UHGV virus genome: UHGV-1705587
Reading direction: 5' to 3' (one strand)
DNA length: 20,116 bases
Source of the DNA: a virus
Below, in pieces: positions 7,099 to 17,361 of this stretch. A model generated the notes under the pieces. It was not told the DNA's origin, made no database searches, and saw only the letters and a list, made by a program, of their open reading frames with translations. How positions within the stretch are numbered: the first letter of the stretch is position 1; the number at the start of each line of letters is the position of its first letter. Position numbers and translations under genes: made by a program.

Positions 7099-7139
7099 TA
7101 ACCAGAACGACCCCGAAAGGGGCCAGAAGGAAACTGAAA

Positions 7140-11432: not shown

Positions 11433-11620
11433 CCTTCAATAGCCTGCCGGGCGGTGAAGATTTTATTCTTCGTCCGGCGCTTGCCTTCCATATTGACCAG
11501 AAAGACCTTAACAGCGGTGCGGTAGACCTCTGCCGCATCGCGCTTCTCAATGACTACCTCGACATGCGCGAGGATAACGACGCCCGGGTAGATAAATGGA
11601 GAGCGGACAATGAGCGGTAA
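11387..11620 (+). CDS. Predicted -1 frameshift extension of the tail assembly chaperone (P2 E+E'-like); fused product spans 11007-11620
   Basis: The -1 frame is open with no stop from the slippery site T_TTT_TTG (11381-11387) to TAA at 11618-11620, filling the gap and overlapping the tape measure start by 11 nt. Predicted extension: ARTPYQRDAHPASGITFNSLPGGEDFILRPALAFHIDQKDLNSGAVDLCRIALLNDYLDMREDNDARVDKWRADNER. Fused product about 204 aa. Confidence 0.55.
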   Translation, partial: ARTPYQRDAHPASGITFNSLPGGEDFILRPALAFHIDQKDLNSGAVDLCRIALLNDYLDMREDNDARVDKWRADNER

Positions 11621-14788: not shown

Positions 14789-15853
14789 ATGTCTCTTAAC
14801 TGGATGCGCCATTTTGAGTTGCAGCTGTTGGACCAGAACGGGCAGGGTATTTCCCTGTCTGATTTTAAGGTCACGTTCCAGATCGAGTGGGCAGATACAC
14901 GCTGGCCGCGCGTGGCAAACGTGAAAATTTACAACCTTTCGACCGATACCACGAACAAGATACTGGGGCAGGAGTTTGCAAAAATTCGCATCATTGCCGG
15001 GTATGACGGTATTGCGCCGGATGTTGATGCGAGCCAGGTTGGTGTCGCCCGGGAGATTTCACCAGACCAGGTAGGGCAGGTGAACGGTCAGAACTACGGC
15101 CTGATATTTGACGGTGATATTCGCTTCACCGTCACCGGGAAGGACAACATCACCGATTCCTGGGTGCTGATTCAGGCCATCAGTAACCACGAAGCGTTCC
15201 TCTACGCGACTACCATCACCACGCTTGCCGCTGGCTATACCGTTGCGGATCTGCACCGGGCGACGATGCAGGATTTCAACGCGTTCGGCGTGACACAGGG
15301 CATTACCGGCGATTTTCCTGATACCGTGTTTCCTCGTGGCCGCGCGATTTACTCATCCAGCCGCAACGTGATGGATAATATTGCTGCGCAGTGCAAAGCG
15401 ACATGGCAACTGGTGGATGGTCAGGTCCAGATGGTGCCGGAGGATAAATATATTCACGAAGCCATTGTGTTGAATGCCAATACTGGCCTGATCGGTATGC
15501 CGCAACAAACGATGGGCGGCGGAGTAAACGTGCGGTGCCTGATAAACCCAAACATCCGTATTAATGGTCTTATCCAGCTCGATCAGGCTTCGGTGTACCG
15601 CGCCACGCTCGGCAAGAGCGAAATAGCACAGTCGCCCGGGCGTATCACCGAAACAGAAGAGAACGGCAACCGTGTGCTGACCGGCACGACGTCACAGGCT
15701 GCCAGCATTGCGACGGATGGCGTTTATATCGTCAAAGCTATCGACTATACTGGCGACACCAGAGGTCAGGCGTGGTACATGGATTTGATGTGTTTTGCGC
15801 GTGGTGCTCGTGAAATGGTTAGTCAGGACACGCTTAAAAAATGGCAGGTATAA
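14789..15853 (+). CDS. Baseplate hub protein (P2 gpD / late control D-like)
   Basis: 354-aa ORF with AGGAG RBS, last gene of the FI-FII-E-T-U-D-like block. Size and position match a hub protein. Confidence 0.55.
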   Translation: MSLNWMRHFELQLLDQNGQGISLSDFKVTFQIEWADTRWPRVANVKIYNLSTDTTNKILGQEFAKIRIIAGYDGIAPDVDASQVGVAREISPDQVGQVNGQNYGLIFDGDIRFTVTGKDNITDSWVLIQAISNHEAFLYATTITTLAAGYTVADLHRATMQDFNAFGVTQGITGDFPDTVFPRGRAIYSSSRNVMDNIAAQCKATWQLVDGQVQMVPEDKYIHEAIVLNANTGLIGMPQQTMGGGVNVRCLINPNIRINGLIQLDQASVYRATLGKSEIAQSPGRITETEENGNRVLTGTTSQAASIATDGVYIVKAIDYTGDTRGQAWYMDLMCFARGAREMVSQDTLKKWQV

Positions 15854-15854
15854 G

Positions 15855-16205
15855 ATGGGTAAGGCCAAACTTCTAATTTGTGGTGTTCTTTTATCAGTTG
15901 TCGGCACGTCAGAGGCCTTAGCTGATACTCAGTGCGGGCCGTATCGCCTCACTGCGGGCAAAGAAGGACTAATGCTTATTAACGGGGTAAAACCTGAAAC
16001 GCAAAAAATGTCTTTTCTCAAGTCTAAAGATGACTACCAAAACATGAAAGCAGAATGGATGGTTGCAACCGACCAACCCGGCCGCTGGGTTGGGCTTGAG
16101 TACATCAAGCGCAACGGCAAAGCCATTCTCAACGCACAGTGGTTGCAAGCCAGCATGGATTCGCCGCGTCAGTATGCAACATACGACTGCGTAAAAATTA
16201 AATAA
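15855..16205 (+). CDS. Moron gene A: small Sec-secreted (periplasmic) protein of unknown function
   Basis: 116-aa ORF starting 1 nt after the hub stop (the longest ORF from 15795 would overlap the hub gene). N-terminus MGKAKLLICGVLLSVVGTSEALA-DTQ looks like a signal peptide with an AxA cleavage site. Mature protein about 93 aa with two Cys (one near each end). About 47% GC by hand count versus 55-60% in flanking phage genes. Confidence 0.55.
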   Translation: MGKAKLLICGVLLSVVGTSEALADTQCGPYRLTAGKEGLMLINGVKPETQKMSFLKSKDDYQNMKAEWMVATDQPGRWVGLEYIKRNGKAILNAQWLQASMDSPRQYATYDCVKIK

Positions 16206-16216
16206 GCGACTCATCT

Positions 16217-16447
16217 ATGAAGATAACTATTTTTTCTGATGATCATGTCCAGTCAGTTGATGCCCCTGATGGAACTTTAAGCTGGACCATGCTGAACTCT
16301 GATGGCTCCAAATCAGAGGCTAAAGTAGAAATGTATGAATATCGAGAATTATCGGTTCATAAATTCTGTTATATCGCTCGCTTTAGGGACGTTGAAATTA
16401 GTGAGATGCGACATGCCGCTGTTAAACATGGCTATGACGTAAATTAG
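16217..16447 (+). CDS. Moron gene B: small cytoplasmic protein of unknown function
   Basis: 76-aa ORF 11 nt after gene A, no signal peptide, weak RBS. About 39% GC by hand count, the most AT-rich coding segment in the window. Followed by a 176-bp AT-rich spacer and an intrinsic terminator. Confidence 0.45.
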   Translation: MKITIFSDDHVQSVDAPDGTLSWTMLNSDGSKSEAKVEMYEYRELSVHKFCYIARFRDVEISEMRHAAVKHGYDVN

Positions 16448-16585
16448 TGCAATATTAGGATCGCAGAGAGCAGATTTTTTGATTATCATTTATTTGAGCA
16501 TTTGACTGGGTGTTATACACCAAGCGCCACCCGAAAGGGGAAAGGGAGACGATAAGCCGTTTCAGGTTAAATGCTCACATCTCAT

Positions 16586-16612
16586 AAGGTCGCCATTGTG
16601 CGGCCTTTTTTT
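16586..16612 (+). terminator. Rho-independent terminator downstream of the moron cassette
   Basis: Stem GGUCGC (16588-16593) pairs with GCGGCC (16600-16605), one G-U wobble, 6-nt loop, optionally extended by two A-U pairs, followed by T7 at 16606-16612. Located 11 nt upstream of the spike gene ATG. Confidence 0.5.
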
Positions 16613-16623
16613 ATGGGGTTTTT

Positions 16624-17361
16624 ATGCCAATTCCAACTCAATCACAGATCGGCGGAGAGCAGCAGACCGCGCAGGCCATAGCCGATTCGGTGTCTACCCA
16701 GATGCGCGTAGCGATGCCCGGCATCATTCAGTCGTTCGATCCTGATACTGTTACCTGCACGGTAGAGGTGGCGCTACGCGGTATTGTTGGCGACGGCTCC
16801 ACCGAATTAAAACCGCTGGTGGATGTGCCGGTTATCTTCCCGCGCGGTGGCGGTTGCACACTGACCTTTCCGGTTAAAGAAGGCGACGAGTGCCTGCTGA
16901 TCTTTGCCGACCGTTGCATCGATTTCTGGTGGCAGAGCGGCGGCGTTCAGGAGACCGTCGACCCGCGTCAGCATGATTTATCGGATGCGTTCGCCATCGT
17001 TGGCCCGCAGTCGCAAGCACAAAAAATCGGTGGAATCAGTACCGGAGCAACGCAGCTGCGCAGCGACGATGGGAGCACGTATTTTGAGCTCAACCCCACC
17101 ACGCAGAAAATTAAAATTGTAGCGCCAGGCGGCCTGGATGTTATCGCGCCTGAATCGACATTCTCAGCGAAGGTAACGATTACCGGTCTACTCACCTGGA
17201 TGGGGGGGATGGTCGGCAGTCTTGCCAGCGGAACAGCGGCGAAAATTACTGGTGCGATTGAATTCTTTGGGACGCTTAAATCTAACGGTAAATCTATTGA
17301 TGACACGCACACCCACAAAGGCGTTCAGACGGGTAGCGGCAATTCTGGTGGGGTAAACTGA
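16624..17361 (+). CDS. Baseplate central spike / baseplate assembly protein V-like
   Basis: 245-aa ORF, first gene of a V-W-J-I-H-like block. Gly-rich C-terminus with an HTH (His-x-His) motif (nt 17308-17316), reminiscent of the metal-binding apex of gpV-type spikes. Confidence 0.55.
   Translation: MPIPTQSQIGGEQQTAQAIADSVSTQMRVAMPGIIQSFDPDTVTCTVEVALRGIVGDGSTELKPLVDVPVIFPRGGGCTLTFPVKEGDECLLIFADRCIDFWWQSGGVQETVDPRQHDLSDAFAIVGPQSQAQKIGGISTGATQLRSDDGSTYFELNPTTQKIKIVAPGGLDVIAPESTFSAKVTITGLLTWMGGMVGSLASGTAAKITGAIEFFGTLKSNGKSIDDTHTHKGVQTGSGNSGGVN

Follow-up and report, generated by a model that had tools for sequence, protein, structure and literature searches.

An intrinsic terminator and an uncatalogued structured RNA in a putative cargo slot ahead of the tail spike gene of virus genome UHGV-1705587

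The terminator and its place in the tail operon

The subject of this report is a 176-nucleotide (nt) spacer, positions 16448-16623, in a stretch of 20,116 nt from the virus genome UHGV-1705587 (this whole stretch is called the window). The spacer lies ahead of the tail spike gene and holds two features of the + strand: an 83-nt RNA with the fold of a four-way junction (16495-16577), which belongs to an uncatalogued structured family, and an intrinsic terminator (16586-16612). To its left, also on the + strand, are the baseplate hub gene (14789-15853) and a conserved small gene of the family phrog_3443 that ends at 16205 (a 351-nt gene is annotated here in relatives), both part of the phage backbone, and then an open reading frame (ORF) of 76 amino acids (aa) at 16217-16447. 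The spike gene itself (16624-17361, + strand) has an N-terminal PF18352 domain, presumably Gp138_N, and is annotated in E. coli relatives as baseplate assembly protein V or as membrane-puncturing spike protein.

The terminator was recognized by a site scan, by folding and by its conserved position. Its stem-loop, AAGGTCGC-CATTGT-GCGGCCTT, spans 16586-16607 and has eight pairs (five of them G-C and one G-U) around a 6-nt loop. The T-run of seven occupies 16606-16612, and 11 nt (16613-16623) then lead to the spike ATG at 16624. These 11 nt include the Shine-Dalgarno sequence of the spike gene (GGGG, 16615-16618, + strand), which is part of a backbone sequence, TTTTTTTATGGGGTTTTTATG, common to the relatives. 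The initial annotation of this DNA had placed a hairpin with T7 at this distance from the spike ATG and suggested that its folding energy be calculated. Both the feature and its position are borne out: the hairpin folds with -11.5 kcal/mol (z = -3.9), and none of 200 shuffled sequences folds as well. It is also the sole + strand hairpin (<= -8 kcal/mol) that abuts a T-run in our scan of the 20-kb window, and of 100 dinucleotide shuffles of the window, 3 contain a site of equal quality (>= 7 T, <= -11 kcal/mol). Thus 16586-16612 has the sequence and fold of a Rho-independent terminator, a GC-rich hairpin directly before a U-tract.

Stronger support than the shuffle statistics comes from comparison. 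A GC hairpin followed by six or seven Ts precedes the spike gene in every relative checked, and the stem sequences differ with the pairing kept. The terminator is retained in 12 loci with at least seven stem types, and relatives with six different cargoes all have the hairpin and T-run ahead of the spike ATG. The T-run ends about 11 nt from the ATG in the window and in loci L017, L044, L001 and L028-L032, and about 22 nt from it in L037, L040 and L041. The stem-loop reads AAGCCGC-ATACA-GCGGCTT in Citrobacter phage Omnitron (L001), AACCCGCC(G/A)CCGAGCGGGTT in L028, L031 and L032, AAACCAGC-TTCG-GCTGGTTT in L029, ACCCGC-TTCG-GCGGGT in L030, GACCCGCC-ACCC-GGCGGGT in the Salmonella and Enterobacter relatives (L037, L040, L041), and variants of AGGTCGCC...GGCGGCC in L017, L044 and L045. 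One hairpin is common to three different cargoes (those of L028, L031 and L032); other cargoes bring their own. The type found in the window, AGGTCGC-loop-GCGGCC-T6-AT, stands also behind unrelated cargo in L043 (about 2755-2785), L005 and L016, and this recurrence implies that a terminator at this position is selected and is swapped along with the cargo. The exchange would proceed by recombination in or near the T-run, and the terminator appears as the conserved right-hand edge of a cargo slot, not as a peculiarity of this phage. Terminators of the AGGTCGC type (in the window, L043, L005, L016, L017, L044 and L045) look like a portable module of accessory cassettes, or morons.

The slot itself is outlined by breaks in homology. 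Over most structural genes the window is 97-99% identical to phage Omnitron and to a prophage of E. coli ECONIH5. Homology to Omnitron breaks at 15804 and resumes at 16600; that to the ECONIH5 prophage runs at 94% identity up to 16195, breaks there and resumes at 16606, within the T-run. In 39 complete E. coli genomes, matches within 16440-16640 begin only at 16591, 16600 or 16606. The relatives have other cargo between the phrog_3443 gene and the spike gene: a Phd/Doc toxin-antitoxin pair, a reverse-oriented DUF4236 gene, STY1065-like genes or hypothetical ORFs. The cassette of the window, of which the 76-aa ORF is the first element, has a GC content of 39-43% vs. 53-62% in the flanks. To judge from these comparisons, the region between the hub block and the spike gene, the first gene past it, is a variable cargo (moron) slot of a lambdoid myovirus prophage. 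The initial annotation had seen in the spacer a join between two gene blocks, and a modular junction is indeed what the homology breaks reveal. Its analogy with the separate operons of P2 holds for position but not for tail type: the tail is of the E217/Pam3/Gp138 type, so that P2 nomenclature can be positional only.

Morons of the lambdoid phages HK97 and HK022 were reportedly described by Juhala and colleagues in 2000. The cassette is like them in being extra DNA of deviating, lower GC content that is missing from near-identical sister phages, in lying between two late structural genes, in ending with a Rho-independent terminator of its own (16586-16612) and in occupying a slot whose cargo differs among relatives. 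It is unlike them in that no convincing promoter of its own was found, the position of the terminator is conserved throughout the slot, and part of the cargo is a structured RNA, not a protein gene. A published definition of the moron includes both an own promoter and an own terminator (PMC3594210). No promoter was reported by the consensus scan within the cassette or immediately to its left; the one candidate is a -10-like box (16484-16489).

The protein-coding part of the cassette is a member of a tiny family (nine clusters, in Enterobacterales only). The 76-aa ORF has no Pfam or PHROG match; its AlphaFold2 model, five strands and a C-terminal helix with a mean predicted local distance difference test score of 78, has no fold match in the PDB. 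The ORF occurs with the RNA in the same slot and also without it, in loci of Salmonella, Enterobacter and Yersinia; L037-L042 are among these, as is the Yersinia locus L043, where a homologue of 75 aa sits after a Q gene. Two loci with an identical cassette, L051 and L052, have a prophage right flank that adjoins ybhB-bioA-bioB-bioF-bioC, the classical lambda attachment region, and the L051 prophage has lost most head and tail genes.

The spacer was described initially as AT-rich and non-coding, and as the only sizeable non-coding gap of the operon. It is non-coding but not empty, since it contains the conserved RNA, and its GC content of 43% is uneven (30% at 16448-16494 and 49% within the RNA). 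Its standing as the only such gap is essentially right: the rival, 177 nt at 11433-11609, is annotated in a relative as a coding sequence (DUF6889) and is probably a frameshift extension or a small ORF.

Elsewhere in the window are terS (120-674), terL and the portal gene, head genes of the Mu-F/Pa193 type, and tail genes for an E217-type sheath, a PhiTE-type tube, a tape measure with an SLT domain, a Dit-like protein, a plug like Pam3 gp18 and the E217 gp41-like hub. Past the spacer, the spike gene is followed by genes for a sheath initiator, Baseplate_J and DUF2612. At 7108-7125 (+ strand), 10 nt past the stop codon of the major capsid gene, is a GC-rich hairpin, CGACCCCGAAAGGGGCC(A), that lacks a T-run; it could serve, behind the most abundant of the structural genes, to stabilize mRNA or to attenuate weakly. 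In the ECONIH5 prophage (L033, 21,300-34,700) the head module is interrupted by a copy of IS5 and a block of about 12 kb with two integrases, a TOPRIM/DUF927 primase and Icd-like and Ash-family genes, that is, a P4-like satellite inside the prophage.

A four-way-junction RNA family

The 176-nt spacer folds with -54.8 kcal/mol (z = -3.5) into a closing helix of 13 base pairs (bp) around three hairpins, followed by the terminator. All elements are on the + strand. The closing helix P1 pairs 16495-16507 with 16565-16577, and within it lie P2 (16509-16521), the joining strand J2/3 (AAGCGCCA, 16522-16529), P3 (CCC-GAAA-GGG, 16530-16539), J3/4 (16540-16545) and P4 (GAGACG-AUAAGC-CGUUUC, 16546-16563). 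A linker, CAUCUCAU (16578-16585), connects the RNA to the terminator, and a similar one, AUCUAUAAGG, precedes the terminator in the distant loci L019 and L022. Upstream of P1, at a distance of 5 nt, is the -10-like hexamer TATCAT (16484-16489, + strand), a candidate promoter for the RNA.

An alignment of 15 distinct sequences (A1) was made, and a covariance model (R1), with which the window scores 106 bits. The consensus has 27 pairs: 14 in P1, which can be extended to about 23, four in P2 with a variable loop, three in P3 and six in P4. Seventeen of the 27 pairs have compensatory double changes. Paired cells amount to 96.5%, vs. 83% with shuffled partners and 29-47% in slid controls, and on each of five measures all 500 shuffles fall short of the observed value. 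Nowhere in the alignment do the junction strands AAGCGCCA and AAAG or the P4 loop AUAAGC vary. The P3 loop is always of the GNRA type (GAAA, GGAA, GCAA or GAGA), and its closing pair changes from C-G to U-A in L019 and L022. Each member folds by itself into the common four-way shape. The pair counts contain about 40 G-U cells vs. 4 A-C cells, which identifies the functional strand as the + strand, that of the surrounding genes. From its relative L017 the RNA of the window differs at 5 of 83 positions (94% identity), and the flanking DNA is 80-83% identical. Peptide coding by the RNA core was considered and rejected: the substitutions are non-synonymous in the open frame, yet the pairing is preserved.

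The RNA is an uncatalogued structured family with strong covariation. No match at gathering threshold was found in Rfam 15 in the window, nor on the element in three other members, and relaxed filters gave only sub-threshold matches to Phe_leader (22 bits) and DicF (20 bits, antisense). A search for tRNA and tmRNA genes found none, and a literature search by the exact core string returned unrelated matches of the primer type only. The resemblance to DicF concerns the antisense of J2/3 (16508-16535, - strand; 20 bits, E = 0.14, 14 of 18 positions). It was judged to be due to chance because the longest contiguous pairing is 7 bp and falls partly inside helices; were it real, the RNA would be partly complementary to DicF.

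The family comprises 30 loci and 17 distinct sequences in eight context groups, always on the sense strand, and each positive locus yields a single copy with model R1. The members came to light by three routes. BLAST with the spacer gave an 85% match of the core to intergenic DNA downstream of the integrase in Salmonella phage PT1 and Serratia phage MQ-4, the two positives among 50,697 phage records; pattern scans gave 12 true IMG/VR contigs and three metagenome contigs; and L044-L054 were added by walking from homologues of the 76-aa ORF. The model detects no copy in Omnitron, in the E. coli relatives or in the prophages matched by terS. The RNA is rare: BLAST with its variants gave no match among 5,426 complete E. 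coli genomes or among 72,556 plasmids. A pattern scan of species-representative genomes produced seven matches in unrelated phyla that miss the rest of the motif and are put down to chance, as are the matches L021, L027, L035 and L036 from broader gapped patterns in IMG/VR.

The contexts are diverse. In group A (the window, L017 and L044-L054) the RNA follows the 76-aa ORF and precedes the terminator and the spike gene. In PT1 and MQ-4 (group B) it follows the integrase gene, with a terminator 107-174 nt further on. L004 and L020 (group C) have it after a phrog_17248 ORF and some 165 nt before a terminator, to which holin and endolysin genes succeed. In L005, L007 and L016 (group D) it comes after DUF2560 and directly before the int-alpA motif (RF02996) and a small ORF. 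L006 (group E) has it 153 nt after a Q gene of PF06323, just past a promoter-like site and a terminator, and L018, L023 and L024 (group G) have it 155 nt after a Q gene of PF06530, 15-25 nt past a tR'-like terminator. In L008, L025 and L026 (group F) it lies between a Terminase_2 terS and terL. In L019 and L022 (group H), finally, it follows a head-decoration-like ORF and is followed by a terminator and then terS.

An all-vs-all comparison of ORFs within 4 kb revealed no protein family in more than three or four of the eight contexts, and those shared by three or four are ordinary lysis genes, DUF2560 and spurious antisense ORFs over the RNA itself. As no protein co-occurs with it and the 76-aa ORF is seen without it, the RNA is best regarded as an autonomous mobile part; by its distribution it would be a horizontally mobile module that settles in accessory slots of lambdoid genomes. 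Only in groups A and H do the terminator and U7 come directly after the RNA. The two groups share a similar linker, AUCU(C)AUAAGG, along with the immediate terminator, and their RNAs differ compensatorily in P3 and P4, which suggests that the RNA-plus-terminator unit is one functional form, whose transcript would end in a hairpin and U-tail.

Two observations concern neighbors of the RNA. In L008, L018 and L023-L026, about 60-300 nt past it, a conserved stretch of some 230 nt contains repeats of the motif TATGCA as well as an inverted repeat, GTTAC...GTAAC. Depending on the locus, this stretch is succeeded by terL or by lysis genes; it may be a cos or a regulatory region. The int-alpA motif of L016 (460-524, - strand; 38.7 bits vs. 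a gathering score of 35.8) is directly 3' of the RNA. A leader and hairpin like int-alpA (CATGACGAnCAACTAnGnCGAGGTTGT) precede the small ORF in L005 and L016 and, in L043 (about 2440-2500), the 75-aa homologue of the cargo ORF, a placement that suggests int-alpA to be a 5' leader of moron ORFs. The new RNA resembles int-alpA in being an orphan structured RNA of enterobacterial phage accessory regions, next to which it lies in L016 and L005, but int-alpA is a single long hairpin of unrelated sequence and structure, and the new RNA does not match RF02996.

The order of structured domain, terminator, Shine-Dalgarno sequence and ATG invites a comparison with riboswitches. The RNA could serve a riboswitch or attenuator as its aptamer, with formation of the terminator under its control and expression of the spike and baseplate genes tuned in this way to a metabolite or factor. 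Its invariant junction nucleotides and GNRA loop are aptamer-like, and the weak Rfam matches to Phe and Leu leaders reflect the layout. However, the RNA and the terminator co-fold in both the minimum free energy and the centroid structures, and no competing antiterminator pairing, that is, no mutually exclusive pairing, was found. The next terminator is at a variable distance of 26 to 430 nt, the downstream genes are unrelated or absent, and in relatives the terminator occurs without the RNA. We hold this explanation to be improbable.

Late transcription and the spike block

How the genes beyond the terminator would be transcribed is suggested by the relatives. In the ECONIH5 prophage the order is Nin region, annotated antiterminator Q, tRNA, holin, lysozyme, Rz, terS and onward. 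NinB and RusA are present in Omnitron, along with an ORF of 247 aa that matches the Q-like family phrog_753 (E = 1.5e-57), followed by two terminators and the holin gene. All four prophages with the exact terS of the window have one rightward array that runs from a Q gene through holin, endolysin, Rz and sometimes Rha to terS, and their terL and portal genes are of the same length as those of the window. Q belongs there to PF06530, except that L058 has instead a DUF1133 protein with a faint PF06530 match. Three Q families, PF06530, PF06323 and PF03589, are represented among the phages examined. A strong + strand terminator follows Rz inside the late unit of one of the terS-matched prophages (L057, 7059-7079). 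Strong + strand terminators also lie between Q and the holin gene in L034 (16885-16915 and 17045-17070), an interval that in Omnitron contains a tRNA-like 3' fragment (GGTTCGAATCC...CCGCCA).

In the lambda paradigm, polymerase modified by Q reads through tR' and later terminators along the late operon. The present phages resemble lambda (pR', qut, tR') in the Q gene of the relatives, the promoter-like site, the terminator before the lysis genes and the one long rightward late operon with internal terminators. They differ in that Q lies outside the window and is known from relatives, so that its action on 16586-16612 would follow by analogy. On this analogy, unmodified polymerase that comes from the left, or from the possible -10 element at 16484-16489, would stop at 16586-16612. 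The baseplate genes would thereby be kept silent, and cargo transcripts would gain a 3' end near 16612. During lytic growth a Q-dependent late promoter would drive the whole late operon from the lysis genes to the tail fibers, and the modified polymerase would pass 16586-16612 and at least one other internal terminator. The spike block would then need no promoter of its own. Read-through by Q is likely the most economical explanation for transcription of this block, and the terminator itself would be of the textbook kind, closing a moron slot within a late operon under Q antitermination.

These considerations bear on what had been said at the outset, that transcription should largely stop at the terminator and that the block beyond it would need its own promoter or antitermination. 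The first is unlikely to apply to late, Q-modified polymerase. As to the second, no promoter was found, and the Q genes of the relatives favor antitermination. The initial failure to see a convincing sigma-70 promoter in the spacer agrees with our consensus scan, which has no sigma-70-like site upstream of the spike T-run. The pair TTGACT/TATACA, discounted already at that time, has its hexamers 6 nt apart and inside helices P1 and P2, and is no promoter.

The terminator might alternatively be a true boundary between lytic operons, with the spike-to-fiber block under a separate late promoter or activator site in the spacer, as in P2. The slot does coincide with the junction between hub-like and spike-like genes, and the terminator is conserved. 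But the 11 nt between T-run and ATG, which include the Shine-Dalgarno sequence, leave no space for a promoter past the terminator, and transcription from any promoter further upstream would run into it. In addition to the negative promoter scan, the sequence upstream of the T-run differs between relatives, so that there is no shared activator site, and the phages are lambdoid with Q, not P2-like with Ogr. Of the explanations considered here, we give this one the least credence and regard it as very improbable.

Passage of the terminator could also be the work of the RNA itself, as a cis antitermination element like HK022 put or the rrn leader that makes polymerase resistant to downstream terminators and so allows expression of the spike block. 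The RNA is found in the 5' part of late operons in six of the eight contexts. In groups A and H the T-run of the terminator starts 26 nt past P1, and an intrinsic terminator occurs no more than about 430 nt downstream in all members with enough sequence there, L025 and L026 of group F excepted. Like put and other processive antitermination RNAs, it would be a structured nascent RNA in a phage operon, upstream of terminators. However, put consists of two hairpins acting in cis, and the new RNA is a four-way junction. Sister phages without the RNA keep an equivalent terminator at the same position before the same spike gene, so that passage does not depend on the RNA. The RNA sits directly after Q, the late promoter and the first terminator in phages that have Q anyway, and it occurs also after an integrase gene facing a convergent operon. 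Some members have a boxA-like string, UGCUCUUU, in the 3' strand of P1, where it would be base-paired; it is missing from the window. We consider such a role rather unlikely. In the sequences concerned (L004, L006, L008, L018, L020 and L023 of groups C, E, F and G) the 3' strand of the P1 extension reads UGCUCUUU(CC) or UGCUCUUAC and resembles boxA of the rrn leader and of the lambda nut sites; the likeness, which is lacking also in groups D and H, is probably coincidental.

What the RNA may do

We loosely favor the view that the RNA acts in trans. It would accumulate as a stable, compact transcript of about 115-120 nt that extends from P1 through the terminator. It could start at a weak promoter of its own or be cut from the transcript of the cargo or of the late operon, with termination or processing as the step that releases it. 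It would be expressed at least during lytic growth and have a factor of the host or of the phage as its target. Among known systems it can be compared with AsxR and AgvB of enterohaemorrhagic E. coli, prophage small RNAs at conserved moron sites downstream of a Q-dependent late promoter (Tree et al., 2014; PMC4104026). The same stretch past the Q-dependent promoter is where the new RNA lies in groups C, E and G. The differences are these: the new RNA has no sequence or Rfam similarity to AsxR or AgvB, and it lies on the sense strand of the late operon, often without an adjacent terminator. AsxR and AgvB are 51-60 nt long, variable in their 5' seed and conserved in their 3' hairpin, whereas the new RNA is a four-way junction of 83-110 nt with an invariant core. 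A trans-acting small RNA of the Hfq type is an independent transcript with a single-stranded seed, a terminator hairpin and a U-tail; here the hairpin and U7 adjoin the RNA directly in groups A and H only, and the promoter is uncertain. The candidate seed AAGCGCCA has no significant complement within the window, and in a target search the complement of AAGCGCCACCC occurs there at the level of chance.

A number of points weigh against this picture. The -10-like box, which is TATCAT in the window, TATAGT in L017 and TATAAT in L044 and L045 (TATNNT in the four variants, with T1, A2, T3 and T6 kept), would give a transcript of about 117 nt, but the -35 region is poor. About 20 nt separate the left edge of the cassette from the ORF, and there is no clear own promoter as in a classic moron. 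In the Q contexts the RNA begins 15-25 nt past the first terminator and leaves no space for a promoter, so that it would be part of the late mRNA there, which fits a role in cis or in processing as well as one in trans. The invariant junction and the GNRA loop suggest a specific ligand, a protein partner or catalysis. The terminator is of moderate strength, with its one G-U pair and 6-nt loop, and partial read-through without Q is possible. Q is assigned to this phage from its relatives because the window excludes the Q region. Finally, what is said here of transcripts, for the terminator and the RNA alike, derives from sequence and predicted folds.

Placement of the RNA at gene ends raises the question of mRNA processing or stability. 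The RNA could be a site for RNase III or RNase E or a barrier to 3' exonucleases that segments the late mRNA and protects the upstream cistron, with the terminator hairpin contributing, mildly attenuating downstream expression and setting stoichiometry. It usually begins about 10-45 nt past a stop codon. P1 measures 12-23 bp and attains the length for RNase III in groups C, E and G, an AU-rich single strand lies ahead of P1 in the window, and the bare hairpin after the major capsid gene (7108-7125) is similar. Such an element, however, has no need for invariant junction strands, P4 loop and GNRA loop across contexts, and most relatives do without the RNA. To our mind a role of this kind is unlikely, if slightly less so than one in cis antitermination.

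The invariant core takes on another meaning if the RNA represents a new functional class of phage RNA, in which the core would build a tertiary fold that binds a factor or small molecule, or is catalytic, and would be portable among lambdoid slots. Candidate roles are those of an anti-defense decoy, a module for antitermination directed at polymerase or Nus, or a self-processing element. We regard this as a real possibility, though a tentative one and well short of probable.

In closing, we prefer the combined view in which a terminator at the edge of the slot is read through by Q-modified polymerase and the slot carries a mobile, trans-acting RNA as cargo; taken as a whole we find it probable, by a modest measure. 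The tail operon would then follow the logic of lambda, with one Q-antiterminated late transcript and insulated cargo slots. The hot-spot between hub and spike genes, bounded by a conserved terminator, is one where relatives store toxin-antitoxin and other accessory genes, and should be useful for the mining of phage cargo. Within enterobacterial phage genomes the RNA is mobile among eight or more positions, and it has invariant nucleotides like those of ribozymes or aptamers. Orphan structured RNAs of this quality are rare and directly testable, and historically they have led to riboswitch, ribozyme and anti-defense mechanisms.

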